In this document: positions 18,101 through 39,510 of the stretch, in pieces
How positions within the stretch are numbered: position 1 is the stretch's first letter
Layout of the letters: each line of letters begins with the position of its first letter
From: a virus
Taxonomy: Duplodnaviria; Caudoviricetes
Strand: one strand, 5' to 3'
Length of the DNA: 56,772 nucleotides
Virus record (IMG/VR): IMGVR_UViG_3300036944_000989
Coordinates: 1 to 56,772 of that record
Notes under the pieces: model-generated
Databases searched by the model: none
Told to the model about the DNA's origin: nothing
What the model saw: only the letters and a program-made list of their open reading frames with translations
Program-made: the position numbers and the translations under genes

Positions 18101-21100
18101 ATCGTGTAATATATCTAGACTCTAACATGAGAGTAAAAGGTGTATTGTACCACGAAGCATTCCACGGTGTATTTAGATTTATCATGGATGGTCCACAACG
18201 AAGAGCGTTGTTAGATTCTGTAATTAATAATAAAAAATACGCAGCTTTATTTACAGATGCTGCGATTACAAACTTTGCAGAAGACAGAAACTATACATAT
18301 GAGAAAAGTAAACTCATAGACCTTATTGCTGAAGAAGTATTAGCAGATGGTTTCCAAGCATACATGAATAAAAAACAAGCACCTAAAACGATGCTACAAC
18401 AATTCTTTGAGTTCCTAAAAAGAATAATTGCATTCTTTAAAAGACACTCAAATGATATTGATTTAGCATATGAAAAAATTAGAAAGGGTGAGATGCGTGC
18501 CGCTGTTAAAGAAGAGAACCTTTTTAACAACGAGATTGCATTTGATAACATTACAGGGTTATTAAAAAACACTGTTGATCAAAGAACAGGTAATGTAAAA
18601 CAAGTAGCTACTCAATTAGAAAGTTTACAAAACAATGAATTAATAGACTCTGTTGTAGAACAATTATTTAAGATAGATATTGCAAATGAAGATGCTTCGT
18701 TTGAAGATAAATTTAACGAGGCAACAATTTCTTTATTAGAGAATACATGGAACTATGATTTACTAAAAGCACAAATTTCAGAAGATGATACGGAAAAACA
18801 AGCGTTACTTAAAAAATTATTTTATAATAAATTTTCTCAATACAGATTCATACTTGGTGCTAGAATGCGTGGTGTCGTTGTTTATGATTTAAATGATACA
18901 ACCAATCCTGGATTAGATAAAAAGATATACAAAAACAAATACAGAAGAAATGCAAATGAAGCTGTAAAAGATAACACTAATGGTTCTGAGTCATATGAGC
19001 AACTTAAAAAAGCTGTTAAAGAAAAGTATGATCACGTTAAAAACATTCTTAACTACGAAGAAGATTTAGATGACAATGAAGAAAAAGAATTAAACTTATT
19101 AAAAGAATCAGAAAAAAATCTTTATGAGAATCCTCAAAACGAACATGAAGATGAACAAGATGATGCAGTAAGTAATCCTTACGAAGATAAATCACTTGCT
19201 GAGAAAGGTGGTATCCAATCATTACCAAAAGAGTTAAGAGAAATGATGTCAATCTTAAAGTATGAGATTGTACATCCTGAACTTGGTATTAAAATACCTA
19301 AGTATGTAGACGCATATGAAACATTTGGAGTATTGTTAAAAATATCTTCAAATGTTGACTATGATAATATACTTGAAAATATAAAAGTGGTATCAAACAT
19401 GTTGCTTGATGATAACTTGAAAAAGAATTATGATGCTGCAAATGATTTACTTAAAGTATACGAATACATAAAAGAAAAATCTCAAATTGTAACTGACGAA
19501 AATGGTACTATAAAAGTTAGCAATTCTCGTTTTTATAATATCTTTTTAGATACTGTTAAAAAAGCAGCAGTAGATTATATAGTAATTGAACCTAGATTTA
19601 GAACATTCACACCTAGTATGGATGATGATATTGTAGATGACTCTAGTTATGTACAAAAGAAAAAAAGTTCAATGGTTGACTTTGATGTTAGAGATAAAAT
19701 TTTATTTACAGATGTAAACGCAACAAAAAATAAAATTATTAAAAACATTACAGCAACCTACAGTAAAAATAAAAATACACCTGAGTACATTAATGCATTA
19801 AAGAAAATTAATAAATACATAGGTATTATTGCACATAAAGATAATAAATCATTATTCAGTTCTGCTGTAGATGAGTCTGTTAAAATTGAAAAGTACTCAA
19901 AAGAATTATCAGATGCTTTTCAAGAAATAGGAATGGACTTTTCTAAATCATTAATAAGATTGTCATTGTTAGCTATTGATATTCAAGCTAATAAGAATCT
20001 TCCTATGTTAAACACTAATGGGGATTTTTACAAACACTATTTAAACAATGAGCATTTTATACTTGAGAACAAATATTTAGAACTAGACTTTTTTAAAGAT
20101 TTGCAATTACTTATTAATAAACTTTATGCAAAAGAAATAACTAGTTCAGAATTATCTGCTGAGTTAGATGATAATAATGGAGAGTTTTCTCGTTTAAGTC
20201 TTATTATAAGAAACGCAGCTTCTTATTTAACTACATACGACCCTACTGAATTACCAAGTGTATATAGAAATGCTGAAGGTAAACCTGTTTATAGATACTT
20301 ACCTTACACTCCTGTTTTACATATAGCAGAAGATGTTAGAAAATTTGGTGTTGTAAAGTCTTTACAAAATGATGAGTTCTTTGAAAACTCAAAAGATTTT
20401 TACAGTGCTAATCCTTTCTTCAAACCTCTTATGAATAATGAAGACACTGAAGAAGCACGTAGACTAAGATTGTTTTATAAAAACTTTACAGTATCCCTTT
20501 ATGGTGGTGTAAACCAATCAGTTGACGATGGTAAAAAAGACGGTAATGTATTTAAAAATATTGATGATGCGTCTCAGTATGTTTTATACATGTTAGGGTT
20601 CTTAAAAAGAAACACACATAGTGCTAGAGTAAATGGTCAAATAACAAACATTGTTACATTTACAAGAATGTTTACGACTATTGAAGCTACTAACACAAAT
20701 TACTTAATGCCTGCTTTATATGATAGTTATGTAAATAAAGATGGCACCTTTGTAACAAATGAAAATGGTGTTGAAAAACACGTTGACATGTTATTGCAAA
20801 AAGTAAGACAAGAATTTGAAAGAATTAAATCTGAAACTACAGCTGTCACAAAACTTAAAAAAGCATTTGATGCTGATAAAAGAACAGGCGAACGTAAGTT
20901 AGTGAATAAGTATAATGCTGTATTAAATGATGATAATAGTGCTAATGTTACTGATGATGAATTAAGAGCATTTAAGTTTAATTATTTTACACAAATGTTT
21001 AATAATAATCCAGAACTTAAAAACGCATTAATAAGTCATGCAAAATCTAAAAAGAACTTTGATTCATTACCTGAACAAACATTACAAAGTTTAATTCAAG

Positions 21101-24100
21101 CATTAAGAGAATACTCAGATAAAAAATTACAAGATCACTTTAAAAATCTTGTAAGAAAAGATATCATCACTCCTTCAATTGTAAAAAATCAAAATGAAGA
21201 AGGAAAAGTTATTACAACTACTAAGTATACTTCTAAATTATTACCTAAGATTGTTAAAGAAAGTAATAATAAAAAATTAAAAATTGCAAAAGAGTATGGT
21301 AAATCATCAATAACAGATTATAAGAATGTTGTTACTGATGCATTTTATAACTATTGGGTTAATAGTTTATTTGTTAATGAAGTTTTTGATGGTGACATTG
21401 CTCTAGGTGTTAAAAATGCTGTTGACTATAACAAACGTCAAAAGCGTAATGCTGCATCTAACAGTAACTTGAAAAAGGGTACACACAAAGTTGCTTACAT
21501 AGATACGTTATCTGGATATATTCATCCTGAGTATTTAGGATTTGGTCCATATGCTTCGTTAGAAGAAGTAGAAGATGATCCGCGTTTAAAGATTAAAAAG
21601 AATCAAACTATAAGAGAACATCTTATTCGTGATTATGGTAAGAAAGTTATCTTTAATGGTGTTGAAACTGACACAATGCATAAACTTTTTGATGGTCAAT
21701 CTGTATCTGTTTTAATGCACCACATGGATATGTATGAAACAATTGGTAGATTGAATCCTAAAATTAAAGATTTGATTATCAAAAAACATTATTCTCCACT
21801 TAGTGCAGCAGAATTAACTTACTTGAAGAAAAACAAAGTTGTTTTAAATTCTAAAAAAACAGTTACTGCTTCAAGAAGTATATATCATAAACTATCAGAA
21901 ATGTACATTGATAGAAATGATGTAAGCATGTTTGCTATCCCTCTTAATGATTCTCCAGAGAATGCACAGTATGCAAACCTTAATAAGAAAACAGCTTATA
22001 AGTTTTTACATGAGCAGTATAGTAAAATTTATAATTTACGTATAGAGAATCAAGCACGTATCAAACAGAATGATTTTTCATTAAATGATGCTACTGAAGC
22101 TGAGATTAAAACAATATTTAAAGAGATTCATAAGTTCTATCAACCATTACCGCATAGAGTAAAACTACATGAGATGTTAAACTCTATGGAGTATCACAAC
22201 ATTGATCAGTTGATGGATACTGAATCATCAAAACTTGCAACACTTTTACCTACAAATGTAAATAACAAAGATGCTAACGGGTATATAAAATTACAAAGAT
22301 CATCTATTGATGCTCCTAATAGATTTAAATTCTGGCAAGTTGAGACATCTGGAATCAAAACTATTATAAAATACTCTGTACAAAGTAAGGTGTTAATACC
22401 TGCTAACTTACCAGATGTAACTGAGATTATAAAAAAGAAAGGTGTTTCATTAACTGCTGCACAACAGGATGCTATTAAAGATGAAATGAACAACTTGTTG
22501 TTTGATTATCATAGTACTTTAAAAGATGTTGCTATATCGCATGAATCATTGATGCAACTTTTCTTAAAAGATGAAGGTGATGCAAGATTAAACATTGGGT
22601 TTATGTTTGATTTGATTAGAAAAAATCTAGCAGAACAAAATGTAAGTAGTAATAAATTAAGATTATTTGAGACAGATCCTCAAACAGGATTACCTATTCA
22701 CAATGCTAACCTATCTGAGATACGTGATATGCTTAAATATTACTTCTTCTCTCAATATAGTAAGTTTACAGATGAGAAAGGTACAGGTGAGAAGTTTATT
22801 CACATGACTGCATATGGTCATGAAATACTTGTTGATAGTAAAGGTAATACTATATTTACAGAAGACTACAAGAAAAACCCTTCTGCTTATGGTAAAGTTA
22901 AATCAAGACCTTTAGGTATCAGTATAGAAAAACGAAATGGTAAAACTGTATATTTTGTTGAGTGTATTGTACCAAAACCTTTGTATAATAATCCTGAGAA
23001 ATTAGAAAAATACAAAGAGAAGATTTTAAAAATGTTTGCTACTCGTATTCCTACAGAGGATAAACGATCTATGGTTATACTTAAAGTAGTTGACTATATT
23101 GATTCTGCAAACATGACAGGTATTATTGTACCACAATTGGTCCACATTTTAGCGGGTTCCGATTTGGATATTGATACATTGTACACACAACAGTACAGTT
23201 TCTATAGAAACTTTAATGGAAAAGAATTTTTATATGGTGACTACTCAGGATATAATAATGAAAAAGAAGGTAAGTTTATTGAGTATTTAAACTATGTTGC
23301 AAAAGATAAAGACTTTACTACAATCATAAAACGTAACTTAGAAAACATTAAGACTGGCTCTAAAATAATTGATAGTCCCCTTGTACGTAAAGTATTAGAG
23401 TTATCAGGCGTTAAGACTGAGGATTTAAATCAAGCATTTGAGACATTTAAAAATAATAACTTAGATACTATAGATATTGATGAGGTTATTGCTGAACTTG
23501 AAATGTTGAAAAAAACAGCAAAGACTATATCTAATGATGATGCTTACGTTTATAAAAATGATGTAGTACCAAGTGTTCTTGCTACGTTACTTGCAGAAAA
23601 AGGATTAGTTGATAAGATTGAAAATTCTATACAAACTGATGCTGTATTAGGTAGAACTGTTGACAAAGCTAGACTAGATGAATTAGCAAAAATTAGTAAA
23701 GATTACTTTAAAAAAGTAAATCAATTAAAATTCATTGCAGCTTACATGAAGGTGCAGTCTATTTTGCAAACATTGCAAGAACAAAGACTTCCAACAAGTA
23801 TAACTAACTTTCAGAAGAATCCTATTGCAGAATTGATTGTAAAAAATAAATATCAAAATGCAAACCTTGATGCTAAGATTAATATACTTAGTAATGAGTA
23901 TGTATTTAATAATTTATATATCAACGAGCGTTCTTCTACACAAGCATTTTTGAAAATACTTAAAGATTTTGGTATTGACTTAGATGCTGAAAATGCAGAA
24001 ATTGATCAGTTTACAATTGATGGTGTTGTATCATCACGATTGAAAAACGTATTAAGTAAAGCTGGTATTGGTACTACTGCTAATATTAATAAAACACTTG

Positions 24101-27100
24101 CATTTTTAAGTCAATATAGAGACGAACTTTTTAGAATTGTTAAAGATCCTGTATTTAGATTTGTTTCTGGTGAAACTGGAGAATACAATATTTACGGTGA
24201 CATTGGAGGTTTTAATATTGATGATGAACGTATTATTGGTATTATTGGTAATATCTTAGGTATGTTTGCAGATGGTGCAAAAGAACCAATTCCTGCTGCA
24301 TTAAATCTTAATGAAGTTAATACACCTGTTACGTTAGCAATGATTGCTGTTGGAATTAAAACTCCTCTTGCTATTGCTTTTAACTTTATACCTGAAATTA
24401 AAACAGCAATTGAAAATGTACAAAAATCTACTTATGCTGTAAATGATGGATTACAAAACTCTAGAAAATATTTAGTTAATGAACTAGGTAATATGATTAG
24501 AGATTTGCAACATGAAAGAAAGGTTGATAAAGACTACAAGATTATTAATGAACTTAAAGATGCAGGTTTGATATCTCAAAAAGGTAACATTAATAATATG
24601 GAAGGTTTAGGTGGTCCAAACCTTGTTATCGCATTTAATCAAAAAAAGTTAGATAAAGAATCTTTATTAGATAACACATTAACCTTAGACGAATTAGGTA
24701 TTAGAGTTTCTGCTATCAAAACGCTTGAAAGCATTGATGAAAATGAAGAGGTTGTAAAAGCTACTACAGAAGTTCAACTTTCTGAAAAAGCTCAAAAACT
24801 TATCTTACTTCATTTATATAAAGAGCAAGCAAAACAAAATGGTACTATCACTTCTGCTGGTAATATTGTTAACATGTTTAAAAGACTAAGACCTGATTTT
24901 GAATTCCTTGACAAAATGCTTAAAGATGTTAAAGAATTAAAAAATGGTAACTCTTTAGTGCCTGGTGAAATTGCAGATAAAATATTTTCAGATGATCAAG
25001 TGTTTAATGTAATTGATAGAATACTCCAACACATAGATAGAAAATCTCAAATCATGTTCATTGAAAGATCTGAACATTTTAAACATATAAGAAACACATT
25101 TGAAAACTTGTTTAAAAGTAAAGACTTGTTTGCAAAAACAATCACATCTTATATTGCTTTAAACAAATACAAGCAGGCATTTTCACAAAATGATCCTAGT
25201 TATTCTCAACTTACAGATGAGCAGAAAGCTAAGAAGGATGAAGAGACAGCTATGATATTAGAAATGTTTAATGCTGATTATTGGTTTGATAATGATTTAG
25301 AAAGTGAGTTGTCAGAGATGCAAGAAAAACATCCTGAAAATGCATTCTTAAATAGACTACGTACATTTACTACTTCAAATGAAGCAATCATAAAAGCTGA
25401 AAATGAAGAAGATAATAAATTTGTAAATGAAAAAATTATCACATTACTTGGTACAGCAAAACTTACAGGAAGACTGTTGGAAAATGTAGAAAATGATGCA
25501 CATAACTTATTTAAACAAGAACCTATGTTCTTTAAAAGGTTATTCATACATGAAATTATAAGAACAGGATTGATGCAAAAATCTGGTTCATACATGCCAT
25601 ATCTTAATCCTGACTTTAAATTAGGAATCTCAAAACACTTAAATGATTTTGAAGATATTTTAAAAACTATAAATAATCCATCTGAATTAATTTCTAAATT
25701 AAAAAGTTATTTTAACTATACATCTGATGAGGAGCTATATACATTCTTTGAAACAATGTTATATAACTTAGTATACCAATCATCTGATGAAATTGATAAT
25801 AACAGAATTAGAACCATTGCGTCTTCTAAGAGACCTATTAATGTAGATAGAGTAAATGGATTCAGTAAGATAGATACTAGTGATTTAAATGATCCTGATG
25901 CAGATCCTGTTGATGAATTAATAGATTACATATTACCTATACCAGGTGTTGCACAGTTTGATGGAGAAGAGCTTTATCTTACTGATGACATATTTGATTA
26001 TAAAACTGAGCAAAATAAAAAAGCAGAGGATGTAATTTTTAATTTTAATATTCCTAATAAGTCTTACGGAAACATTACACAAAACAACATGATTGACATT
26101 GCAAAATCTTTTGATATTGCATATGATAGTAATACTAAAATGTTTGTGTTTCCAAGTGCAATAATTATTGGAGAAAGTTATTATGTATTAAAAGGTACAG
26201 ATACTCATATAAACAGACCGTTAGGTTTTAACCTACTTAGTTCTGAAAAATATGAATCTGCAAAAGAAGAGTTTATTACAACTTACAATACAGGTACTTT
26301 AGCTTTGTATAAAAGATTACCTAACAAACCTATAGGTAGTAGTATTAGTGCATTAGCATTTAATAGTGATCAACTAAAACGTTATGCTGATTTAACTGCA
26401 AGTGAACCTACTCAATTCTTAAACATTCCAGGACCTAAAAAATCTAAAAAAGAAGTTAGGTATTCATTAGATGCAATCATTAATAAAACTTCTCAGAATA
26501 AAGATGCTTTACAGTATAACGTTATTTATCCAACTAATGATAAAGCTGAACTATTAGAAAAATTAAATGAGTTGCAAAAACTTCATAACGAAGGTGTTGC
26601 TTTATATACAATGCGTGTATCTAAAAAACAAGCAAAACACTTCAAAGGTTTAGATGAACAACATCATTATGGTAATCCTTTTACAGGTACAAATAAAAAA
26701 GATCAGATTCCTATGAATGGAATTACTGCAGCTGTTAATGCATATGAGCAGTGGTTAGATGGTCAAGATGAATTTATTGATAAGAACGGTGTTGCTCATG
26801 ATTTATCTCAAGAAGAAGATTCACAAGGTGTAGAGTACAGTGAAAGACGTGACTGGATTAATAGTAGAATAGAAAAGTTAAGTCAAAAACCTGAGATCAT
26901 TAAACTTGGATATTTCTTAAAAGGTTACAGAAGTCATGCTGATATACTTGATGAGCGTATGAATAAAGGAAAACGTGACACTACACAAAGTGCTGAAGTT
27001 GAGGAAGTTACAAAATCAGATTTATCATATGAGGATACTTCTAAAAAAGAACCAACTCAATTACAGTTAGAATTAGAATTAGATGATACACCTGCTGATT

Positions 27101-27198
27101 TTGATGATGATACAGGAATGATATTCAAAAGTAAGTATCTTCGTAAAAACAAAAACCAAGATAATTTACCTGAGATACCTGATACAACTGATTGTTAA
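15160..27198 (+). CDS. Virion-packaged DNA-dependent RNA polymerase (crAss-like, double-psi barrel) with zincin and DUF4326-like accessory domains
   Basis: 4012 aa; catalytic AGS-DLDID-TLY (23161-23175) preceded by TRIPTEDKRSM; HEAFH...EEVLAD zincin motif at 18151; C-terminal YGNPF...AYEQWL...LGYF...HADIL. Confidence 0.9.
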   Translation: MNCNSSVEHNKEIIKDLLKLDPVKYKNFDRVAEFILDAPIDNENKSVSLHVISNIFIALAEYNPSFESGKAAEVAGLSELLIDIPAHVQAATSILKPSKKIVNTYQKLIDDLDDVLNSDLSNEPKSFYANNVLKPIRDFFNNYKFVSPDEKKQKIQEVFTYLNKIKDVSPFSLYLEDSFEELSNELYNVNIFKSLQDIKDDNVDLDTYIVTLQSREVVEAVKDDQGFMTNKLTGLPIDEADIVAQKLALYQRESERNDDKISHTFYNNDLVSGLRIKPYSTTESFDDTVNAFADIVNPENEVKIYAVKIDDFADNRVAEIQRIEGLENRNHETFESEAQVEYLKENADNAVIAITREKKSEEVFTLVAEIVKADGSTYNFYIYGLNNFAVLRGDNTTSKLDFTSVDDLQTIQDLAVFRNENGKIKDLTEHHLLTLKKHAENFNVLKNQIVKKLNGNAKTNVLDVTKEFFKSYSFEKDFKIKKFEPLNEALKNNSNAFHDVQVKTYDEKGNVVSEESIKIPFLFVKPFSNAVDYKPVNFLKKNQKIVYNDEELDLIDYLEKLGLDGDFVSSLLDSKNQKYANSIFLIKNKEGKYTYRIGKYREHIDNEVLFSKFVADLNLYLTGDVQKNFESFYEKYTIRPIKNKNAESSLALDFTVSLSDQLQIKIGTFKNSKDFADLKKNDFYFKIPNKSIRELLKSFLPSSREYAYLQQQFSFLKDVQLYDEDNNVNFKNVPVVVDKIFNNALAGKDPIIKEMFDNIEKAKIQFNNLIKTNVIDVINNPKNNEEYGEFIKQVNEDFGSLDNLFFNHYDDQFKTPFVKFGELSVNEVNEDLTVSFNNYGLVNSTTKKLIITPKKAGNVAPTSSVVTVSKPVRNKINTKVDKTILETTVTERNNEPTLEAPETSVVIEEAEEPENFDDEAPFSVLEQGERQLATEQEILTEDKWLADTYATELGVEYSLDGIKDIIELTKLEGSVLGAVKNRVIYLDSNMRVKGVLYHEAFHGVFRFIMDGPQRRALLDSVINNKKYAALFTDAAITNFAEDRNYTYEKSKLIDLIAEEVLADGFQAYMNKKQAPKTMLQQFFEFLKRIIAFFKRHSNDIDLAYEKIRKGEMRAAVKEENLFNNEIAFDNITGLLKNTVDQRTGNVKQVATQLESLQNNELIDSVVEQLFKIDIANEDASFEDKFNEATISLLENTWNYDLLKAQISEDDTEKQALLKKLFYNKFSQYRFILGARMRGVVVYDLNDTTNPGLDKKIYKNKYRRNANEAVKDNTNGSESYEQLKKAVKEKYDHVKNILNYEEDLDDNEEKELNLLKESEKNLYENPQNEHEDEQDDAVSNPYEDKSLAEKGGIQSLPKELREMMSILKYEIVHPELGIKIPKYVDAYETFGVLLKISSNVDYDNILENIKVVSNMLLDDNLKKNYDAANDLLKVYEYIKEKSQIVTDENGTIKVSNSRFYNIFLDTVKKAAVDYIVIEPRFRTFTPSMDDDIVDDSSYVQKKKSSMVDFDVRDKILFTDVNATKNKIIKNITATYSKNKNTPEYINALKKINKYIGIIAHKDNKSLFSSAVDESVKIEKYSKELSDAFQEIGMDFSKSLIRLSLLAIDIQANKNLPMLNTNGDFYKHYLNNEHFILENKYLELDFFKDLQLLINKLYAKEITSSELSAELDDNNGEFSRLSLIIRNAASYLTTYDPTELPSVYRNAEGKPVYRYLPYTPVLHIAEDVRKFGVVKSLQNDEFFENSKDFYSANPFFKPLMNNEDTEEARRLRLFYKNFTVSLYGGVNQSVDDGKKDGNVFKNIDDASQYVLYMLGFLKRNTHSARVNGQITNIVTFTRMFTTIEATNTNYLMPALYDSYVNKDGTFVTNENGVEKHVDMLLQKVRQEFERIKSETTAVTKLKKAFDADKRTGERKLVNKYNAVLNDDNSANVTDDELRAFKFNYFTQMFNNNPELKNALISHAKSKKNFDSLPEQTLQSLIQALREYSDKKLQDHFKNLVRKDIITPSIVKNQNEEGKVITTTKYTSKLLPKIVKESNNKKLKIAKEYGKSSITDYKNVVTDAFYNYWVNSLFVNEVFDGDIALGVKNAVDYNKRQKRNAASNSNLKKGTHKVAYIDTLSGYIHPEYLGFGPYASLEEVEDDPRLKIKKNQTIREHLIRDYGKKVIFNGVETDTMHKLFDGQSVSVLMHHMDMYETIGRLNPKIKDLIIKKHYSPLSAAELTYLKKNKVVLNSKKTVTASRSIYHKLSEMYIDRNDVSMFAIPLNDSPENAQYANLNKKTAYKFLHEQYSKIYNLRIENQARIKQNDFSLNDATEAEIKTIFKEIHKFYQPLPHRVKLHEMLNSMEYHNIDQLMDTESSKLATLLPTNVNNKDANGYIKLQRSSIDAPNRFKFWQVETSGIKTIIKYSVQSKVLIPANLPDVTEIIKKKGVSLTAAQQDAIKDEMNNLLFDYHSTLKDVAISHESLMQLFLKDEGDARLNIGFMFDLIRKNLAEQNVSSNKLRLFETDPQTGLPIHNANLSEIRDMLKYYFFSQYSKFTDEKGTGEKFIHMTAYGHEILVDSKGNTIFTEDYKKNPSAYGKVKSRPLGISIEKRNGKTVYFVECIVPKPLYNNPEKLEKYKEKILKMFATRIPTEDKRSMVILKVVDYIDSANMTGIIVPQLVHILAGSDLDIDTLYTQQYSFYRNFNGKEFLYGDYSGYNNEKEGKFIEYLNYVAKDKDFTTIIKRNLENIKTGSKIIDSPLVRKVLELSGVKTEDLNQAFETFKNNNLDTIDIDEVIAELEMLKKTAKTISNDDAYVYKNDVVPSVLATLLAEKGLVDKIENSIQTDAVLGRTVDKARLDELAKISKDYFKKVNQLKFIAAYMKVQSILQTLQEQRLPTSITNFQKNPIAELIVKNKYQNANLDAKINILSNEYVFNNLYINERSSTQAFLKILKDFGIDLDAENAEIDQFTIDGVVSSRLKNVLSKAGIGTTANINKTLAFLSQYRDELFRIVKDPVFRFVSGETGEYNIYGDIGGFNIDDERIIGIIGNILGMFADGAKEPIPAALNLNEVNTPVTLAMIAVGIKTPLAIAFNFIPEIKTAIENVQKSTYAVNDGLQNSRKYLVNELGNMIRDLQHERKVDKDYKIINELKDAGLISQKGNINNMEGLGGPNLVIAFNQKKLDKESLLDNTLTLDELGIRVSAIKTLESIDENEEVVKATTEVQLSEKAQKLILLHLYKEQAKQNGTITSAGNIVNMFKRLRPDFEFLDKMLKDVKELKNGNSLVPGEIADKIFSDDQVFNVIDRILQHIDRKSQIMFIERSEHFKHIRNTFENLFKSKDLFAKTITSYIALNKYKQAFSQNDPSYSQLTDEQKAKKDEETAMILEMFNADYWFDNDLESELSEMQEKHPENAFLNRLRTFTTSNEAIIKAENEEDNKFVNEKIITLLGTAKLTGRLLENVENDAHNLFKQEPMFFKRLFIHEIIRTGLMQKSGSYMPYLNPDFKLGISKHLNDFEDILKTINNPSELISKLKSYFNYTSDEELYTFFETMLYNLVYQSSDEIDNNRIRTIASSKRPINVDRVNGFSKIDTSDLNDPDADPVDELIDYILPIPGVAQFDGEELYLTDDIFDYKTEQNKKAEDVIFNFNIPNKSYGNITQNNMIDIAKSFDIAYDSNTKMFVFPSAIIIGESYYVLKGTDTHINRPLGFNLLSSEKYESAKEEFITTYNTGTLALYKRLPNKPIGSSISALAFNSDQLKRYADLTASEPTQFLNIPGPKKSKKEVRYSLDAIINKTSQNKDALQYNVIYPTNDKAELLEKLNELQKLHNEGVALYTMRVSKKQAKHFKGLDEQHHYGNPFTGTNKKDQIPMNGITAAVNAYEQWLDGQDEFIDKNGVAHDLSQEEDSQGVEYSERRDWINSRIEKLSQKPEIIKLGYFLKGYRSHADILDERMNKGKRDTTQSAEVEEVTKSDLSYEDTSKKEPTQLQLELELDDTPADFDDDTGMIFKSKYLRKNKNQDNLPEIPDTTDC

Positions 27199-27215: not shown

Positions 27216-28196
27216 ATGCCTTGCAAAATAAAAATTAAACAGCACGTAGAAAACTTGGTTGAACAAAAATCTCAACCAGGTTTATCTATGTCTTTACAAG
27301 ACGCTCAAATATTATCTGCAAATATTAATTCTCAGTTTATGCATCATGTAGTATCATTTAAAAATGAGAATGATGTTGTTAAAAGAGTTATTGATATTCC
27401 ATCTAAACTTGTAGATATGTATTATGATCTGCAGGTAAAAAAAGAAGTTATTAAAACTCCAACCGTTGAAATAAAACCTGGGATACAAGAATTATTTGAT
27501 TCTAATCCTGAGTTAGCTAATATAGGTACAGCAGAACAATACTCTGCATACCTTGATTCTATATTTCCAGATAGTAAGGTAAAAGATATTGTTTATAGAG
27601 GAGCAGAAAAAGGAATAGAAACTCATAAAGCATACTCTCATTGGACTTTAAGAAAAGCTCTTGCAGAAAATTTTGCTAAACAAGGAGTTAATCTTAATAA
27701 AAAAGATGAATCAAAAAATACTGTTTATTTTGCTTTACTTAATATAAAAAATTTAATAAGAAGTATTGATATAACAGATGAAGAACATAAAGAAAGTGGT
27801 TTTGATGCAGCGGCTTCATTTCCTAATCAACAAAAACCAGATGGTACTTATTATGATAATGAAGAAGCAAATGAATCTATACAATTAATAGACAAAAGTT
27901 TAAACAATGAAATAACTGTATTTGAATCAGAACAAATTCATATATTAGGAACTAAAGAAGATATAGAAGGGTTTAAAAAATTCAACAATAATAAACAAGA
28001 TGTTAGTGGTTTAAATTCTGACATAAACAGTTTGAATTTAACTCCAGAAGTCGTAAATTACTTATACAGAAGCAGTCGTAGTAAATCTAAAAACGTAAGT
28101 TTAGAATCTTATACTAAAGAAGTTAAGAAATTAATTGATAACTTGCGGACTAGTTACACAAATGAAGAAATTTTAGAAAAAATTAAATGCTTGTAA
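27216..28196 (+). CDS. Small cargo protein with an ART-PolyVal-like ADP-ribosyltransferase-fold domain
   Basis: Contains LFDSNPELANIGT.EQYS.YL.SIFPDSKVKDIVYRG ... VYFALLNIKN ... GFD ... EITVF..EQIHILG. Cys occurs only at positions 3 and 325. Confidence 0.55.
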   Translation: MPCKIKIKQHVENLVEQKSQPGLSMSLQDAQILSANINSQFMHHVVSFKNENDVVKRVIDIPSKLVDMYYDLQVKKEVIKTPTVEIKPGIQELFDSNPELANIGTAEQYSAYLDSIFPDSKVKDIVYRGAEKGIETHKAYSHWTLRKALAENFAKQGVNLNKKDESKNTVYFALLNIKNLIRSIDITDEEHKESGFDAAASFPNQQKPDGTYYDNEEANESIQLIDKSLNNEITVFESEQIHILGTKEDIEGFKKFNNNKQDVSGLNSDINSLNLTPEVVNYLYRSSRSKSKNVSLESYTKEVKKLIDNLRTSYTNEEILEKIKCL

Positions 28197-28197
28197 T

Positions 28198-31100
28198 ATG
28201 AGTAAATCATGTCCAGTAGGAAAAGAATGGGATGAATTTGTTGATGGTCTTAAAAGTTCAAATAATAAATTATCTTTTTCAGATGCATTAGTTGCCTATA
28301 GTATTTTTAATACTAAAAATAATACTGAGGATCTAATTCCTACAGTTGAAGAGGCACGTAATATATTAAATAATATTACAGCTCTTGAAAAAGATGAAGA
28401 GTTTGTTAGATTAAATGCAGCTTCTAAGATTCAAAAATACTCTGAACAGCTTTTACAATTAGGAGATATCTACGAAAATTTTGCTAACAATAAACAAAAG
28501 GCGGCATTAGAAAAGATCATCACTATGACAGAAAATCATATTGATGCACTTAATAGTCCTATTACACCTAAAACAATCAGTGTTTCTAATTTTATAGGGA
28601 CCTCTACATTTAAAGGAGATCCAAATGAGTATGCAGCATTTAGAATATTTGGAACATTTATTCACGATTTATTAGAAGATGTACAACGTACATCTTTGAT
28701 AAAAGGAAATGTCTCATTTAAAAAAGTATTTACCCGTGATTATTTTAATGAGAAATTAAATCAATTTCAAGAAAAAGAACCTTTTGAAATTAAGTCATTA
28801 GATAATGACAAGTTATTTTTAATAGCACAAGATCTAGTAGAGCAAATTAATGCATTAAAAAAACGGGGTTATTTAATATTACCAGAAATATCTGTTATTG
28901 GTTCTGATGAAAATGGAGCACTTATAGTAGGACGTATTGATATGTTATTACTTGATACTCAAGGTAATGTAAAAATTTACGATTTTAAAACTAAAAAGGT
29001 TCAAGGTTTATTAGATGAAGGTGACGATTGGCAAGTTGATAATGCATCTATAGCACTTGCAGGGTTATCAAAAAAAGTATCTATATATAGTACTAAAGAT
29101 CAACCTGAAGGTACTCAAACAAAATTTATTACTGGTGAGTTTGGTTCACGAAGTGCATATGACACGTGGGCAATGCAGATTAATGTATATAAAAACATAC
29201 TAGGACAAATTGGATTAGATGTTAATGGTCATACTATTTTGTCTTTATTATATGAAACAGATGAAGATAAAAACTTTTTAGGCAGTACTGTACATGAGTT
29301 TGAATTAGAGAATTACTACTTGTATGCAGATCATGATGTGTTGTTAGATGCTAATGGTGTAAGTTACATTGCTAAAAGACAGTTAGATACAAGAATTGAT
29401 AAAATCGTAGCTCTTGTAGATAAGCATGTACCAACTTCAAAAAACAAAAAAGAAATAGAAATAAAAACAACGCGTTTATTAAATGAAGTTCTTCAACCTT
29501 CAGAAGAAGACTACATTATAATGCGTGAAAACATTAAACGTTTATTAGATAAAGAACTAATAGAGGTAAACAATAAAATTAAAAATGCAAAAACCATTGC
29601 AATTAAAAAACTATTAATTGAAAGACGTGATTCATTAATGAATTACAAGACCTTGTTGGAAAAAATGAGCAATGAGGATTTTGATAAATCAATTAACACT
29701 GCAACAACTCTAGATTATTTAAATTCTGAATTAACATTCTTAAATGAAAAAGCAGAAGAACTTATAGAAAAGTTTAATAATAATCAAGAAGCATTTAATA
29801 AAAATGATTTAAAGAGAATGGATTTAATTTATAAATCCTCTGAAGGTTTAAGTGATATTATTAAAGTAATGCAGCGGGTTATTAATGAAGCAAAAGATAA
29901 CGAAGAGAATGGAATCACTGAATTAAGTCCTGCTGTAAACATGTTGGGAGATATAATATTATACAAAGAAAATATTAGTAATATTAAATCTAGAATATAC
30001 AGACAGCAAGCTGTTGCAAAAATTCTAAAGACACCAGGTAAAAAAGTGTTTGATAGAATTAGTGAGCAAATGGCGGAACTTGTAACAAAAGAGATTGAAG
30101 TATTAGAAAAAGAAATCGAAGACTTAAACTCTAACAAAGGTTTGACTATTTTACAAACCATGAAAAGTAAAGTTCTTCAAAAAATAAGTAGTTCATATAA
30201 ACAAAAGTTAGATGAAAAACTAGCACCTACATCTCCTAAACTTGCACTTATAGAAGAGAAAGAAAGGATGATAAAAGTTTTTAAATCTCTTATGGCAGGG
30301 ACGTTTGATTATACAGACACTGCAGTACTTGCATATTTAGATAATATAACTAATCCTGATAGTACTTTTTATATAGGATCAGATAGAGTATTACCTTATT
30401 CTACTCTTATATCTGGATCTCTTACTAACAACTGGGTTGCATCTGTAGCAAATAAAGACTTAGCATTGTCAGGAGCTACACAGTTTCTCAAGAATGCAGC
30501 AGCAGGTGCTGTAAGAAATGCACAAAATGATTTTGCGTCTTCTAACTTTGATGCACTTCGTGAAAAATTATATCGTTCTGGTAGATCATTTGAGCAAATA
30601 AATAAAGCAATAACAGAAAGAGTTGTTATTAAATATCGTGATCCTAATACTAAAGAGTTGATGGAGCGAGAAGTATTATCAATTGTTGCACCATATACAC
30701 AAGAGTATAAAGATACTTGGAACTCATATAAAGCATTCTTAAAAGAAGCTGATTTTAGAATTAGACAATTAAAATCAGAAAGAAATAACATATTCTTAAA
30801 AAGAGATGATGCATCTAAAAAACGTGTTGAAGAATTAACAACAGAAATACTAGATGCACAAAATGATAGAGCAAGTAAAATAAAAGCACACAATCAATGG
30901 ATGATAGAGAACTCTTCTTTGCCATACATTGATGAGTTTTATACTTTACAAAAAGAATTACCTGTAGAAATTGCAGAAAAGCTTCAAGACTTATATTTAG
31001 AGCTTGAGACATATAGATTTATGCAGGATAAAAAAACTCGTACATATGATGATGAGGCAATTGAAGGTGATGATGAAACTACAGATTTTGATTTTTCAAG

Positions 31101-34100
31101 AATAGGTGAAATCGAGGATGACATCAGAGGACTCAGAGAACAAGCAAAAGAATTAGATCCTAAATACGCAGAATACATTAGTAGACTGGATGAGTTTTAT
31201 GAATATGACATACGATATGATTACTACCAACGTCAAAAAAGTATAGCATTATCTAAGTTTCAGAATAATCCAGAAGAATTACAAAGATGGATGGAGGAAA
31301 ATGAGATTACCATTGCAAAAAAAGAATGGTATGAAGAGCTTAGTGGTTTATACGAAGAACTTTCTATTTACTATGGATCAGATCCTGTATATAAAGATAT
31401 GCTTGATGAGCGTAATAAAATATTAAGAAAGCATAAGTATGTTGACGGAGTATTAAGACCTCAGTATATGTCTGATGAAGACGTTAGAAAGTATGATCAG
31501 ATTGAAAAAGAAATTGAAGAGTATAAAAACAGCAGAAAAAAAACAAAATTAGATGAAGATTCTGTTGACGCTATAAATGATATATTCTTTAAGATAGAGC
31601 GTTTAAAACAAAAAGATAAAAACAAATATTATACCCAGGAATTGGATATGAGATTTGAAAAACTTAGTAACAGACTTGCACTTGTAAACGAATACGATGC
31701 ACAATATGCGTCATTGATTGCAAAAGGTGTAACTGGTGAAGAGTTGGACAATGTAAAAAAATTACTTACTGCATATGAAGTGCAGTTTGATAAGGAAGAA
31801 AGTGAATACAAAAAATGGTATAACAAAAACCATAAGAATAAATACAAGTCTATAACAAAAGGATACGGTAAATCAAATGCTGATCCTAAAGAATTTAACT
31901 ACGTGACTGGTCCTGCAGAAGCTGTTAAAGAACAATATACAGAAACTGTTCCTCATCCTAAGTATACTAAACGTAGAATGAAACAGGACGCTTATTATGT
32001 AGACGGTATCAAACTTATAGATGAACAAAAAGAAGAATTGTTATCTGATAAAAATACAATGACTCGTTTAACAAATGAGGGTAGATTGAATTTTGAAAAA
32101 GGTGTTTACAATCCTAACTATTTAGAAACACCTGATGGTATACCTATGCCTAAGAACATTATCAAAGTTGATGATAACGTGTATGCTCCTAAACCAGGCG
32201 CAGGATTTCAGAATATAAATCCACGTTATATGGAGTTATATAAAGACAAAGACTTGTTTGAGTTTTATGCAGCGATAACTTCTATGTTTTTTGAATTGCA
32301 AAAACAAACAGATGGTAGAACATTAGGATACGTAGTACCTGGTTCAGTTTCTGGTTTTGTGCAGTCGTTACATTCAGAAGGTTTAATATCTGCCATAAAG
32401 AAACAAAAAGAAATCTTTGTAGATAAAAATGTAAGAGCGTATGGTAGTGCTCAAGATATTGATGAGAACTTATTTGGTGATTTAAAAAACAGTATTAGAC
32501 TAAGAGGTAATAATCAATTTGAATCTCTTATACAATCTGATGACGCTATTAGTTCTGTAATGCAGTGGGTTGCAGAAGCACACTATAATATTGCAATGCA
32601 AGAAGCAGCTCCTGTTGTTGATGCTTTTATAGATGAGTTAAAATCTAAAGCAGCTGAGTTATCAGAGAAAGTAAAAAGAAGTGATAAAGGAGTTGTAAGA
32701 GATATAGACGGTAGTCTTATCAAAGCTGTAGATTTTGAAAAACGATTATCAGAATTAGATGGTATTATTAAACTTGCTGAATACGAAAGAAACAAGTTTG
32801 TATCTGGTCAATATGAAGACCCATCCGCAGCATCACGTGCTATAACAAAAAAACTAAAAGCATTTTTTACATATACTAGTTTCATTAGAATTGGTTTTGA
32901 CGTAACTAACCAAACTAAAAACTTAGTTGCAGGTAGTATACAATCGTATATTGCAGCATGTGATTTTCAAACAGGTCACTATGGTAAGAAAGATTACCAC
33001 TGGGCAAATGGAAAGATGTGGGGATTTAGTGGAACAGTTGGACAATATCTAAAAGACTTAGGTAATATCAGTGATGTAAGCGACAGCACTATGATCTATA
33101 GATTATTTAATCCTGTACAAAAAGAATTTGATAAGTATCTAAGAGATACGTCAGGTAAAAAATCTAGAAAAGTACTAGGTAAGTTGGCAAACATAAACGA
33201 GTTAGCTTATTTTTTACAAGATAAAGGTGATACTATTATTGGTATGACTGTAATGTGGTCAGTATTAAACAGTTACAAATACAGACAGATTGAAAAGTTT
33301 ACAGATGATGGTCAACCTGTATATGTAAAAGACAACAACGGTGATGATGTTTATGTATCAGCACATGAAGCTTATATGAAAAACCCTGATACTAACGAAT
33401 TGGTAATCAGAGATGACGTAGAATATACTGTTGATGATGAAAATATGTTACGTAATATTATTTACTCTGAGATGCGTAGAGCACAGGGTAACTATGCTAA
33501 ATCTGATCAGGTAAAAGCTGAAGCATCTGCACTAGGTAAAATGGTATTGTTCTTTAGAAAATACCTTGTACCATTGTTTATGAATAGATTTGGTTACATG
33601 AAAACTAACTGGGAAGCTGGTGAAATTGGAATTGGTTATTATAGAGCAACACTGTTGGCGTATAGACAATTTGGTGGATTACAAGTTGCAAAACATCTTC
33701 TTGTAGGTGGTAAAACATTGAATAGATTTAATGCAAACACTATGGGTAAATTTCTTACTGCAAAAGTAAACCATACGCGTAGAGATTTTATGGCAATGGT
33801 AATACTTTCAATGCTATCAATGTCAGCATTAGCATGGTATAAAAAACGAAAAGAAGATGAACCTGATGAAGATGAGTTATCACTTGCTACAAGATATAAA
33901 AACGTAGCATTAGATAATATGCTTAGATTATTATGGCAGGTTAAAGGTGAGACTAACTCTATGAGTCCATTTGCAACTGAAAGTCAGACAGAATATATTA
34001 AAAACTTTACAACAGGTATCCCTTTCCAACGTGAACTTTTAGCAGGACAAAAACTTGTATCACATGTTAAAGGTACAATTGCTGTACAACTTGCTAATGG

Positions 34101-34302
34101 TGGTGCAGAACCAGATGAGGATCTTGATTCACAATGGTACCAAGAAAACTGGAAAGATGCATATTATTCTAGAAAATCTGGAAGTTTTGAAAAAGGTGAC
34201 TCTAAATTAATTAAAGACTTTATTGACTTAACAGGTTATAGAAACCTAAGAGATTTAGTTAACCCAGAAAACAGACTTGAGTTTTTACAATCTAAACAAT
34301 AA
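28198..34302 (+). CDS. Large ejection protein with N-terminal PD-(D/E)xK nuclease domain and C-terminal membrane segment
   Basis: 2034 aa; GTFIH..LE, PE, GRID, IYDFKT and Q..VY form a RecB-like motif set (about 28640-29190); TM-like FMAMVILSMLSMSALAWY at 33787-33840. Confidence 0.75.
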   Translation: MSKSCPVGKEWDEFVDGLKSSNNKLSFSDALVAYSIFNTKNNTEDLIPTVEEARNILNNITALEKDEEFVRLNAASKIQKYSEQLLQLGDIYENFANNKQKAALEKIITMTENHIDALNSPITPKTISVSNFIGTSTFKGDPNEYAAFRIFGTFIHDLLEDVQRTSLIKGNVSFKKVFTRDYFNEKLNQFQEKEPFEIKSLDNDKLFLIAQDLVEQINALKKRGYLILPEISVIGSDENGALIVGRIDMLLLDTQGNVKIYDFKTKKVQGLLDEGDDWQVDNASIALAGLSKKVSIYSTKDQPEGTQTKFITGEFGSRSAYDTWAMQINVYKNILGQIGLDVNGHTILSLLYETDEDKNFLGSTVHEFELENYYLYADHDVLLDANGVSYIAKRQLDTRIDKIVALVDKHVPTSKNKKEIEIKTTRLLNEVLQPSEEDYIIMRENIKRLLDKELIEVNNKIKNAKTIAIKKLLIERRDSLMNYKTLLEKMSNEDFDKSINTATTLDYLNSELTFLNEKAEELIEKFNNNQEAFNKNDLKRMDLIYKSSEGLSDIIKVMQRVINEAKDNEENGITELSPAVNMLGDIILYKENISNIKSRIYRQQAVAKILKTPGKKVFDRISEQMAELVTKEIEVLEKEIEDLNSNKGLTILQTMKSKVLQKISSSYKQKLDEKLAPTSPKLALIEEKERMIKVFKSLMAGTFDYTDTAVLAYLDNITNPDSTFYIGSDRVLPYSTLISGSLTNNWVASVANKDLALSGATQFLKNAAAGAVRNAQNDFASSNFDALREKLYRSGRSFEQINKAITERVVIKYRDPNTKELMEREVLSIVAPYTQEYKDTWNSYKAFLKEADFRIRQLKSERNNIFLKRDDASKKRVEELTTEILDAQNDRASKIKAHNQWMIENSSLPYIDEFYTLQKELPVEIAEKLQDLYLELETYRFMQDKKTRTYDDEAIEGDDETTDFDFSRIGEIEDDIRGLREQAKELDPKYAEYISRLDEFYEYDIRYDYYQRQKSIALSKFQNNPEELQRWMEENEITIAKKEWYEELSGLYEELSIYYGSDPVYKDMLDERNKILRKHKYVDGVLRPQYMSDEDVRKYDQIEKEIEEYKNSRKKTKLDEDSVDAINDIFFKIERLKQKDKNKYYTQELDMRFEKLSNRLALVNEYDAQYASLIAKGVTGEELDNVKKLLTAYEVQFDKEESEYKKWYNKNHKNKYKSITKGYGKSNADPKEFNYVTGPAEAVKEQYTETVPHPKYTKRRMKQDAYYVDGIKLIDEQKEELLSDKNTMTRLTNEGRLNFEKGVYNPNYLETPDGIPMPKNIIKVDDNVYAPKPGAGFQNINPRYMELYKDKDLFEFYAAITSMFFELQKQTDGRTLGYVVPGSVSGFVQSLHSEGLISAIKKQKEIFVDKNVRAYGSAQDIDENLFGDLKNSIRLRGNNQFESLIQSDDAISSVMQWVAEAHYNIAMQEAAPVVDAFIDELKSKAAELSEKVKRSDKGVVRDIDGSLIKAVDFEKRLSELDGIIKLAEYERNKFVSGQYEDPSAASRAITKKLKAFFTYTSFIRIGFDVTNQTKNLVAGSIQSYIAACDFQTGHYGKKDYHWANGKMWGFSGTVGQYLKDLGNISDVSDSTMIYRLFNPVQKEFDKYLRDTSGKKSRKVLGKLANINELAYFLQDKGDTIIGMTVMWSVLNSYKYRQIEKFTDDGQPVYVKDNNGDDVYVSAHEAYMKNPDTNELVIRDDVEYTVDDENMLRNIIYSEMRRAQGNYAKSDQVKAEASALGKMVLFFRKYLVPLFMNRFGYMKTNWEAGEIGIGYYRATLLAYRQFGGLQVAKHLLVGGKTLNRFNANTMGKFLTAKVNHTRRDFMAMVILSMLSMSALAWYKKRKEDEPDEDELSLATRYKNVALDNMLRLLWQVKGETNSMSPFATESQTEYIKNFTTGIPFQRELLAGQKLVSHVKGTIAVQLANGGAEPDEDLDSQWYQENWKDAYYSRKSGSFEKGDSKLIKDFIDLTGYRNLRDLVNPENRLEFLQSKQ

Positions 34303-34334: not shown

Positions 34335-36002
34335 ATGTCTAAAATTATTGTACCATTACATCTTGCGAATTTGTACTCTACTCCAAACGGGGTAGATACA
34401 GGTTTTAAAAAGTTCTATCTTAAATCAGGATGGTTAAAGTTGTATGATGGTGCATCAGAAATAGACGTAGTATTAGATAGACCACTAGATGGCTACAATC
34501 CTACTAACGGTGTTATATCACCTAGTGATACTGTACTCAGCGCAATTGAAAAATTAGGATATGGTATATCATATATAACTAATCCACAGTGGGGAACCAT
34601 ATCTGGTAATATTTTATCACAAGCAGATTTACTTTTATATCTAAGTGATAATTATTATCCATTATTAAGTAACCCTGCTAATTATATTACGCAGCAATCT
34701 GTATTAGAATATCCAGATCTTGCATCTTTTCCTACAACAGGAGTTACAAATACAATATACATTGCAATTGATACAGATATTGCATATTATTGGGACGGTT
34801 CAGCATATGTTGTTATAACAGGAAGTACATCAGGTATAACAGGTTTTGGTATTGTAAATAGACTTGCAAAGTTTACTCCTACAGGTTCTGCAATTGGAAG
34901 TTCTAAAATTATAGAATTTAGTGGTGGAGCAACTATAATTAATTCATCTAATAGAAACTTTCTTGACGGAAACTCTATAGTATCAATACAAAGACCTCAA
35001 TCTCAAATTGATTTTATATTAGGAAATCCTGCGTTAGGGCAATCTTCATTTCTTATTTCTGATAATGATCTTGCGGGATTTGAAATACGATCAAAAGGAG
35101 AACTTTCATTAAAAACAGGTTCTACATATTCTAATGAAGGATTAAAAGTTTATACATCAGGTCAGTTAAAATTAACACAAACACCTGCAACAGGAACAAC
35201 TAGTGATTATATATTACTTAGAGACACTTCAGGTAATTTAAAACAAATTGTTTATCCATCTATACCAGCAGGAGGATTACCTCCAGGTGGAACAGTAGGT
35301 CAAATACTTACCAAAGTAGACGCAACGGATTACAATGCTACTTGGCAGGAAAATTATGCTGATTGGACTTCTCAAGTAAAACACATTGTAAAAAATAATG
35401 GTTTATCTGGTACAATAACTAAAGGTACTGCAGTATATGTAACAAGTAGTGATGGTACAAACATGCTTGTTGGTAGAGCAAGTAATACTTCTGAAGCAAC
35501 ATCAAGTAAGACTATGGGTCTTATGCAATCTAACATTACAACTACTGGTGGAACTCAAACAGGATTTGTTATAACAGAAGGATTATTAAGTGGATTAAAT
35601 ACTGCAGGACAAACTGCGGGCGATCCTGTATGGTTAGGAGTAAATGGCGCATTAATTTACGGTCTTGTTAATAAACCCTATGCACCTGCTCACTTAGTTT
35701 TTATAGGAATAGTTACAAAGATAAGCGCAGGGAATGGCGAGATATTTGTCAAAGTGCAAAACGGGTTTGAATTAAAAGAAATTCACGATGTAGACCTGAT
35801 AACTACTACCCCAATAAATGGAGATTTATTAGGATATAATGGTACATTATGGGTTAATAAAACAGTTGCTGGATGGCTAGGATATACACCTGCAAATAGA
35901 GCAGGAGATACATTTACAGGTAATATAGATGCTCCATCAATGAGTTTGAATGGAGTAAATTTAGAATCATTAATGATTGCATATGCAGTCGCTTTAGGAT
36001 AA
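34335..36002 (+). CDS. Tail fibre/structural protein
   Basis: T/G/S-rich mosaic with FPTTG..NTIYIA.DT, GGLPPGG..GQIL.K....DY...W, ELKEIHDV and N+AGDTFTG fibre-type motifs. Confidence 0.7.
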   Translation: MSKIIVPLHLANLYSTPNGVDTGFKKFYLKSGWLKLYDGASEIDVVLDRPLDGYNPTNGVISPSDTVLSAIEKLGYGISYITNPQWGTISGNILSQADLLLYLSDNYYPLLSNPANYITQQSVLEYPDLASFPTTGVTNTIYIAIDTDIAYYWDGSAYVVITGSTSGITGFGIVNRLAKFTPTGSAIGSSKIIEFSGGATIINSSNRNFLDGNSIVSIQRPQSQIDFILGNPALGQSSFLISDNDLAGFEIRSKGELSLKTGSTYSNEGLKVYTSGQLKLTQTPATGTTSDYILLRDTSGNLKQIVYPSIPAGGLPPGGTVGQILTKVDATDYNATWQENYADWTSQVKHIVKNNGLSGTITKGTAVYVTSSDGTNMLVGRASNTSEATSSKTMGLMQSNITTTGGTQTGFVITEGLLSGLNTAGQTAGDPVWLGVNGALIYGLVNKPYAPAHLVFIGIVTKISAGNGEIFVKVQNGFELKEIHDVDLITTTPINGDLLGYNGTLWVNKTVAGWLGYTPANRAGDTFTGNIDAPSMSLNGVNLESLMIAYAVALG

Positions 36003-36006
36003 AAAT

Positions 36007-39360: not shown

Positions 39361-39510
39361 ATGGCAAAATTAAAATCAACACAATCAAGTACATTTACTC
39401 CAAAACCTAAAGTAAAAAGACCAGGTATTCATAGTAAAAAATCTACTAGTAAATTAAAATCTAGTAAAAATTATCAAAAAAAATATGTTGGACAAGGATC
39501 AAAAAGATAA
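39361..39510 (+). CDS. Small basic protein (49 aa), absent from the ORF track
   Basis: Hand translation: MAKLKSTQSSTFTPKPKVKRPGIHSKKSTSKLKSSKNYQKKYVGQGSKR; preceded by an A-rich leader. Confidence 0.65.
   Translation: MAKLKSTQSSTFTPKPKVKRPGIHSKKSTSKLKSSKNYQKKYVGQGSKR

Follow-up and report, generated by a model that had tools for sequence, protein, structure and literature searches.

In cyanophage A4, the C-terminal helix of the ejection protein gp27 inserts into gp26, and the contact is stabilised by a Cys1715-Cys5 disulfide, as reported from cryo-electron microscopy (PNAS 2025, PMC12002296). In the record of Anabaena phage A-4L, ORF27 (1717 amino acids, aa) has a single cysteine at position 1715 and ORF26 a single cysteine at position 5. 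Given the A4 structure, the signature of facing terminal cysteines therefore has one solved case of an inter-protein disulfide. We analysed a stretch of 56,772 nucleotides that is the whole of the IMG/VR virus record IMGVR_UViG_3300036944_000989 (the window; uncultured, estimated completeness 47), and in particular its gene at 27216..28196 (+), which encodes a 326-aa protein with Cys3 and Cys325 as its sole cysteines, referred to here as the coupler or slot protein. As in A4, the window has consecutive genes for putative ejection proteins in which the upstream protein has a cysteine near its C end and the downstream protein a cysteine near its N end, and in both the window and its relatives these proteins are otherwise nearly cysteine-free. 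Unlike the window, A4 is T7-like and has a single junction, and it lacks a small coupler, exchangeable cargo and a virion RNA polymerase. No sequence similarity was found between the A4 ejection proteins and the proteins of the window.

Among the cultured and prototype crassviruses, ΦcrAss001 resembles the window in having giant RNA-polymerase-associated proteins with the terminal-cysteine signature. Mass spectrometry of its virions detected gp45-gp47, gp49 and gp50 (Bayfield et al. 2023, PMC10172136). The single cysteine of gp47 is residue 2339 of 2341, gp50 has cysteines at 5, 1334 and 2404 of 2412, and gp49 has a single one at 5; these positions suggest a gp47-gp50-gp49 chain. Other inter-subunit disulfides are described in the ΦcrAss001 virion, and the order of the cargo is said there to be probably set by packing and protein-protein interactions; in the accessible text the word 'cysteine' occurs 0 times, and the terminal cysteines of the cargo are unmentioned (PMC10172136). 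Unlike in the window, no coupler gene was seen between gp47, gp49 and gp50 in the region examined. The signature recurs in crAssphage (L082, BK010471.1), where gp45 ends with ...SFSCM and gp44 starts with MSCGN, and in crAss002 (L090, MN917146.1), where gp32 has one cysteine, residue 2019 of 2020 (...SFVCS), and gp33 has MSC at residues 33-35. These residues resemble the start of crAssphage gp44, and the annotated start of crAss002 gp33 (12221-12330) is probably 32 codons too far upstream. The smaller cargo-block proteins gp47 and gp48 of crAssphage and gp30 of crAss002 have a cysteine close to the C end, at a distance of 2 to 8 residues (...KQSCR, ...YRCGGHRR and ...FRCGGKKKIA, respectively). 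A thioredoxin and a truncated thioredoxin (gp37 and gp39) are encoded near the cargo block of crAssphage and may bear on disulfide handling. A search of the window, which is about half a genome, revealed no redox enzyme.

Polyvalent proteins (Iyer et al. 2017, PMC5512222) resemble the window in that an ADP-ribosyltransferase (ART) of the PF18760 family has a virion RNA polymerase as its neighbour and is predicted to be co-delivered with the DNA, and they resemble the slot in their combinatorial cargo domains, which include GNATs and ARTs. However, polyvalent proteins fuse their domains in one polypeptide, whereas the ART of the window is encoded in a separate 326-aa gene and framed by a head and a tail with terminal cysteines; neither 'cysteine' nor 'disulfide' occurs in the accessible text of that paper. 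Moreover, the active site of ART-PolyVal consists of His on strand 1, Tyr on strand 2 and Asp on strand 5 (H-Y-D; PMC5512222), whereas the window protein has Arg128 and Glu220, with an uncertain strand-2 residue (Trp143 from the model). Phage T4 Alt is similarly an ADP-ribosyltransferase that is packaged in the head, injected with the DNA and modifies host proteins (PMC5512222), but its clade is R-S-E Alt/VIP2 and it has no link to other cargo. N4-like phages are known to avoid cysteine in their ejection proteins (PMC11445570). Within the literature searched, subscription journals outside the library excepted, neither the terminal cysteines of crAss cargo nor such couplers were described. The terminal-cysteine chain has one published structural precedent; for the coupler, with its exchangeable cargo and an empty form among its variants, none was found in that literature.

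Facing cysteines in a row of giant genes

The coupler gene (start MPCKIKIK, end EKIKCL) belongs to a same-strand row of large genes encoding proteins of 751, 629, 1143, 895, 1544, 4012, 326, 2034, 555, 163 and 943 aa. It lies 17 nucleotides after the 4012-aa gene and 1 nucleotide before the 2034-aa gene. The upstream protein (15160..27198, +; MNC...LPEIPDTTDC) has cysteines at 3, 2602 and 4012, the last of which ends the tail LPEIPDTTDC (27166..27195, +). The downstream protein (28198..34302, +; MSKSCPVGKEW...) has cysteines at 5 and 1588 and a PD-(D/E)XK nuclease domain at aa 148-288. A 1544-aa protein (10513..15147, +), the probable first member of the chain, has its sole cysteine as the last residue (...NKLQC). 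These four consecutive proteins thus contain 1, 3, 2 and 2 cysteines, six of the eight at facing termini, and the neighbouring genes at 72-10508 and 34335-36498 encode no cysteines. The initial annotation, made from the sequence alone, had described a protein with a cysteine at each end encoded between an RNA polymerase gene and the 2034-aa gene, and this description held. A weak but specific similarity to crAss-type RNA polymerases covers approximately residues 2330-2713 of the 4012-aa protein (best 24.5% identity, E 2e-6), so the polymerase label is reasonable. The protein is matched by 28 GenBank phage records, and the matches listed are all crAss-like or uncultured phages, some with annotated RNA polymerase subunits. 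Judged from these matches, the phage is a distant crAss-like virus, and the 326-aa gene is encoded within a giant-gene block together with a crAss-type RNA polymerase.

Terminal cysteines are common among the relatives of the coupler. In the 120 best of 339 homologues, 73 have a cysteine in both the first six and the last six residues, usually their sole two; 19 have one at the C end only, 12 at the N end only and 16 at neither, some of these being fragments at contig ends. Because 73 of 120 have a cysteine at both ends, the terminal cysteines are not due to chance. In the best 80 of the 267 viral loci that encode relatives, the ART domain lies mostly inside giants. It is located at most 450 aa from a cysteine-bearing N end in 33 of 72 distinct ART-bearing open reading frames (ORFs), at most 450 aa from a cysteine-bearing C end in 21 and elsewhere in 14; the remainder are three short ORFs without terminal cysteines and one free-standing capped ORF.

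The same pattern was found in 139 distinct proteins of at least 1000 aa (312,178 aa in total) from related viral contigs. They contain 250 cysteines (0.08%, versus 0.8% in small ORFs of the same loci), of which 139 lie within 8 residues of an end, compared with 1.78 expected. Cysteines also pair over gene junctions. In 74 adjacent ORF pairs with both members at least 400 aa long, cysteines occur on both sides in 54, on neither side in 16, downstream only in 4 and upstream only in 0, and over all 177 adjacent pairs Fisher's p for the pairing is 5e-18. MPC heads are preceded by tails of the LPxI..T..C type, to which the polymerase tail belongs, in 11 of 12 distinct junctions, and Cys-Pro heads mostly follow amphipathic helical tails ending with (I/L)C. 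In other lineages (loci L014, L029, L006, L064 and L073), small proteins of 131-304 aa with two cysteines but different types of head and tail also lie between giants, so that small couplers extend beyond the MPC/KC[LI] family. Stop-codon readthrough and a single polyprotein were considered as explanations of the row and rejected, given spacers of -11 to +58 nucleotides in different reading frames and given that the ΦcrAss001 genes for gp50 and gp49 do not share the strand of gp47.

We lean towards the reading that the 326-aa protein is a coupler in a row of almost cysteine-free giant cargo proteins, that is, a swappable enzyme linked into the injected protein chain. The proposed chain would run from the 1544-aa protein to the 4012-aa RNA polymerase, the 326-aa coupler and the 2034-aa protein. 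The coupler consists of a constant head domain after Cys3, a floppy insertion site and a constant helical tail ending with Cys325. In the virion, the coupler would bind the polymerase through its head, docked on the LPEIPDT..C tail, and the 2034-aa protein through its own tail, docked on the MSKSCP head, with each junction locked by a Cys-Cys disulfide as in A4 gp27-gp26. The cargo would then exit the capsid as a single thread, its members would come free when the disulfides are reduced in the cytoplasm of the host, and the ART-like domain would modify host targets, like T4 Alt. We regard it as likely that the coupler is virion cargo and as reasonably likely that the proteins are joined by disulfides. 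A broader proposal is more tentative, namely that crAss-like phages carry an ordered, disulfide-linked train with a head/tail docking code, in which couplers are plug-in wagons that have their cargo swapped by recombination and that also occur empty.

How several large proteins are ordered and threaded through a narrow podovirus tail is an open question, to which proteins joined covalently, head to tail, through matched end modules would be an answer. The coupler would indicate that such a thread is extensible and could explain the rapid exchange of injected host-modifying enzymes by these phages. It may also point to a natural scaffold that carries chosen proteins into bacteria inside phage particles. 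If the train proposal is true, it would represent a genetically encoded, reduction-released delivery of several proteins into bacteria.

Head and tail flanks and the exchangeable cargo

The head flank of the coupler (aa 1-82; 27216..27461, +; Cys3 codon at 27222-27224) is predicted to comprise two helices, a beta-hairpin and a further helix. The tail flank (aa 266-326; 28011..28193, +) ends with ILEKIKCL, with the Cys325 codon at 28188-28190. The initial annotation had called the C-terminal segment helical, in agreement with the model of the 326-aa protein, in which helices 277-286, 296-310 and 316-325 have a predicted local distance difference test score (pLDDT) of 75-90. It had also proposed that the flanks are adaptors around a variable core, and the expected independent conservation was found: relative to the window protein, the head is identical at 71-80 of 82 positions and the tail at 60-61 of 61, versus 27-91 of 183 for the core. 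Individually, P0002 has 80/82 identical residues in the head, 61/61 in the tail and 91/183 in the core, plus an extra inserted module; P0005 has 75/82, 61/61 and 31/183; and P0006 has 71/82, 60/61 and 27/183. P0003 was left out as a flank example since its C terminus looks chimeric.

The position of the flanks was examined by a phmmer search with a 154-aa flank-only form against 1.84 billion representatives, which yielded 68 hits (E <= 0.001). In 53 of 53 head matches the alignment begins with residue 1 of the target, always with M(P/A)C, and the targets include giants from 982 to 3761 aa long. In 13 of 13 tail-only matches it runs to the target's final residue, with ...KC(L/I). Two hits are full-length flank-only proteins, and two are internal multi-stretch hits that look spurious; in the two-stretch hit P0007, the tail is at the C end. 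Several two-cysteine proteins of 132-172 aa join other heads to the KC(L/I) tail (P0128, P0131, P0153, P0167, P0176 and others). At the level of sequence, the head and the tail are thereby shown to be autonomous, strictly terminal modules. They occur around no, one or two different inserted domains, and they fit the type of tail on the polymerase and the type of head on the 2034-aa protein. The full head-plus-tail family is small, with 14 clusters of more than 270 aa among 5.8 billion proteins. In the model of the 154-aa flank-only form (predicted template modelling score, pTM, 0.46), the head has a pLDDT of about 90 (residues 11-60), the linker at the insertion site 33 and the helical tail 62-76, which fits two independent end modules on a floppy tether. 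The alternative of a single domain formed jointly by both flanks, with the core as a loop insertion, is unsupported, given this pTM and the linker pLDDT.

Six loci are syntenic with the window, one from IMG/VR (L084) and five from metagenomes (L085-L089; 9-sequence metagenome query). In all seven loci including the window, a polymerase-like protein ending with ...LP.(I/M)(P/D).T...(E/D).C is followed by the slot protein and then by a protein of about 2025 aa starting with MS(..)CP(V/I)G. The slot protein starts with MPCK, ends with ILE.(I/L)KC(L/I) and has exactly two cysteines in 7/7 loci, and its length is 154, 326, 336, 339, 612, 644 or 920 aa. The 154-aa slot protein of L089 consists of a head (95% identical to that of L086) and a tail (94%) with no core, and its gene sits between the polymerase tail and the MSCPVGKEW gene. 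The slot of L087 holds a module of about 470 aa that gave no usable hit in the protein atlas, and the slot of L088 holds the same module plus an ART. The core of P0005 is GNAT-like by a protein atlas score of 0.95, which serves as a lead only. The comparative part of the initial proposal of an exchangeable slot is thus borne out, with cores that are ART variants, a GNAT-like domain, the ~470-aa module, two tandem modules or none; a constant frame of about 140 aa takes unrelated domains of 0 to ~770 aa. The initial annotation had further suggested looking for phages that lack the gene and retain the cysteine pair, and no such phage was found among the seven syntenic loci, all of which keep the head-plus-tail frame. 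This suggests that the frame itself is a required link and not only a carrier.

Some further observations concern the slot and its downstream neighbour. The extra module of P0002 (558 aa) lies inside the ART helical extension, contains an HEVLH (HExxH-like) motif and may be a zincin-type peptidase, with no match in Pfam. In L085-L088, the homologues of about 2025 aa each contain between 1 and 4 internal cysteines (e.g., 702, 909, 1459 and 1725). Exact-peptide searches of the viral contigs with the 2034-aa protein gave no relatives. With phmmer, this protein had no match at E 0.01 among the ORFs of the loci, and BLAST gave a weak C-terminal similarity. Because of the phmmer result, equating the ~1900-aa MPC-headed giants of other lineages with fused 326-aa and 2034-aa proteins is not supported.

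The ART-PolyVal-like core

The ART-related region covers about residues 86-256 of the 326-aa protein. Its first part is a helical N-terminal extension of this ART subfamily (aa 86-124; 27471..27587, +; IKPG..ELFDSNPELA..EQYSAYLDSIFPDSKVKD), which holds the most conserved alignment columns and within which an extra module is inserted in some relatives (insertion point seen in P0002 and P0008). It is followed by the ART-PolyVal-like core (aa 125-256; 27588..27983, +), with IVYRG as strand 1, Arg128, Glu220 and a C-terminal EITVFESEQIHILG motif. The core motifs named in the initial annotation were located at 125-129 (IVYRG), 232-236 (EITVF) and 240-245 (QIHILG). The 'GFD' motif that it also named is not conserved; its columns are occupied in 12 to 71 of 120 sequences and have no dominant residue.

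The 326-aa protein gave no PF18760 match in Pfam even to E 10, the sole match being a chance-level one to Raptor_N (E 0.14), and no match in PHROGs or NCBIfam. PDB sequence searches with the single protein and with a 120-homologue profile returned nothing meaningful, and tblastn against 50,697 GenBank phage records returned no match. The 339 homologues were obtained at E <= 0.001 among 2475 candidates, with homologue E values of 1e-20 to 1e-72, and 65 of the 120 best matched PF18760 (ART-PolyVal, of the Tox-ART-HYD2 clade) at E <= 0.001 (best E 4.8e-15). The syntenic 339-aa slot protein (L086) matched PF18760 with 47.1 bits (cut-off 31.2) over residues 127-253, which places the Pfam domain at about 125-250 in the window protein. 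The ART-PolyVal membership of the window protein is therefore transitive, because its homologues, and not the protein itself, match PF18760. From these matches, it is highly probable that the core is homologous to ARTs.

An AlphaFold2 model of the 326-aa protein was obtained with a pLDDT of 70.7 and a pTM of 0.55. A Foldseek search of the PDB using this model gave no match at E <= 0.001; the best E was 0.067, and the list was led by PARP4, tankyrases, PARP14 and RES toxins. VIA-align over model residues 84-247 gave Z scores of 5.1 for PARP-1 (root-mean-square deviation 4.3, 106 aligned), 5.0 for PARP-2, 4.9 for MbcT and 4.9 for ParT, and the program itself rates a Z of about 5 as common for unrelated pairs. 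BFVD matches to the model include several proteins named ART-PolyVal (E 1e-3 to 5e-2). The ART-PolyVal-like core claimed in the initial annotation thus stands by homology to PF18760 members, whereas the structural matches are only weak; the assignment rests on homology, and the fold evidence agrees with it.

The window protein departs from the H-Y-D active site. Column 128 of the homologue alignment is His in 104, Arg in 13 and Tyr in 1 of 119 homologues, and the window protein has Arg. Column 159 is Tyr in 68, Phe in 18 and His in 10, and the MAFFT alignment places Asn159 of the window protein there. Column 220 is Asp in 82, Glu in 10 and Asn in 8 of 111, and the window protein has Glu. The window protein has no Gly-x-Tyr-Phe strand 2, and Trp143 may be the likelier equivalent of the strand-2 Tyr, because the model has a strand at 143-146 followed by a helix. 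A copy of this Arg-type core lies close to the C end of a giant of 3638 aa (L002); 145 of 167 residues are identical to the window core, with dN of 0.070, dS of 0.358 and dN/dS of 0.20. This ratio suggests that the Arg-type core is constrained by purifying selection. The Arg-type core of the window is also carried with other flanks in P0004. We consider the chances that the ART-like core is enzymatically active to be even. The cargo domain is probably an NAD+-using host-modifying enzyme delivered along with the polymerase.

Alternative explanations and other genes of the window

Several points weigh against a disulfide-linked coupler with an active cargo. We infer the disulfides, the docking and the presence of the coupler in virions from the sequences and by analogy. 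Among the large-ORF junctions, 16 of 74 are without cysteines, and the pairing rule fails for crAssphage gp47 and gp48 and crAss002 gp30, because the next protein has no N-terminal cysteine. The polymerase and the 2034-aa protein each have an internal cysteine as well (2602 and 1588, respectively). In the model of the 326-aa protein, the head flank has a low pLDDT of 42-63. Complex predictions that involved 100 aa of the polymerase tail, residues 1-160 of the 2034-aa protein and the 326-aa protein reached scores of 0.30 and 0.20 (mark 0.32); run without controls, they count neither for nor against docking. The matching of head and tail types may partly reflect shared ancestry, because the head-plus-tail family is small. 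As for the core, the 326-aa protein itself fits no Pfam, PHROG or NCBIfam model, the structural matches to the ART fold are weak (Foldseek E 0.067; VIA-align Z 5.1), and catalytic activity is uncertain because at least two of the three H-Y-D positions differ.

These points about the core would suit a protein that is mainly a structural link, in which the head-plus-tail frame is selected and the ART-like core is an inert or tolerated passenger. We consider this unlikely, though worth weighing. It is consistent with the flank-only forms, which occur in the same slot in L089 and as further two-cysteine proteins of 132-172 aa, with the changes at two or more H-Y-D positions of the window protein and with its lack of a Pfam match of its own. 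However, the Arg-type core is 145/167 identical to the copy in another phage at a dN/dS of 0.20, which argues against a passenger, as does the occurrence of the strand-1 Arg in 13 of 119 homologues, several of them with canonical Tyr and Asp motifs. The replacements also keep the chemistry, with a basic and an acidic residue, and an aromatic one if Trp143 is the strand-2 residue. Another explanation, which we judge to be quite improbable, dispenses with linkage: the flanks and cysteines would serve in capsid targeting or packaging, form an intramolecular N-to-C disulfide, or bind metal or haem at the Cys-Pro termini. The Cys-Pro dipeptide in many heads would suit such roles, and middle chain members with a cysteine at both ends could in principle cyclise. 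On the other hand, cysteines co-occur over junctions and not within proteins (54 both, 16 neither and 4 on one side), first members have only a C-terminal cysteine and last members only an N-terminal one, head and tail types are matched, and the same signature in phage A-4L corresponds to a solved intermolecular disulfide.

It is very improbable that this is a common free-standing gene for an ART-PolyVal toxin or anti-defence protein that is made in the cell and stays unpackaged, with a meaningless position among the giants. Free-standing, cysteine-free ART relatives of 185-193 aa do occur in other contexts (L026, L060 and L066). The window gene, however, lies 17 and 1 nucleotides from its same-strand neighbours, and its product obeys the terminal-cysteine rule and has head and tail flanks that are common to giants; in addition, the ART domain lies at most 450 aa from a giant's cysteine junction in 54 of 72 distinct relatives.

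A second ART is encoded at the start of the giant-gene row. The 751-aa protein (72-2327, +) is cysteine-free and has an Alt/VIP2-type ADP-ribosyltransferase domain at aa 566-722 (PF03496, E 2e-12); its frame is open toward the record's 5' end. Two ARTs of different clades are thus encoded in the probable cargo block. Homing-type endonuclease genes are located at 39485-40069 (+), 52206-52661 (-), 49595-50152 (-) and 55065-55691 (-); they are of the GIY-YIG with NUMOD3, SegE-like GIY-YIG and endonuclease VII/HNH kinds, and one lies directly after the structural block. A 283-aa protein (45435-46286, -) has 8 cysteines and matches the spore photoproduct lyase family (PF20903, E 4e-11).

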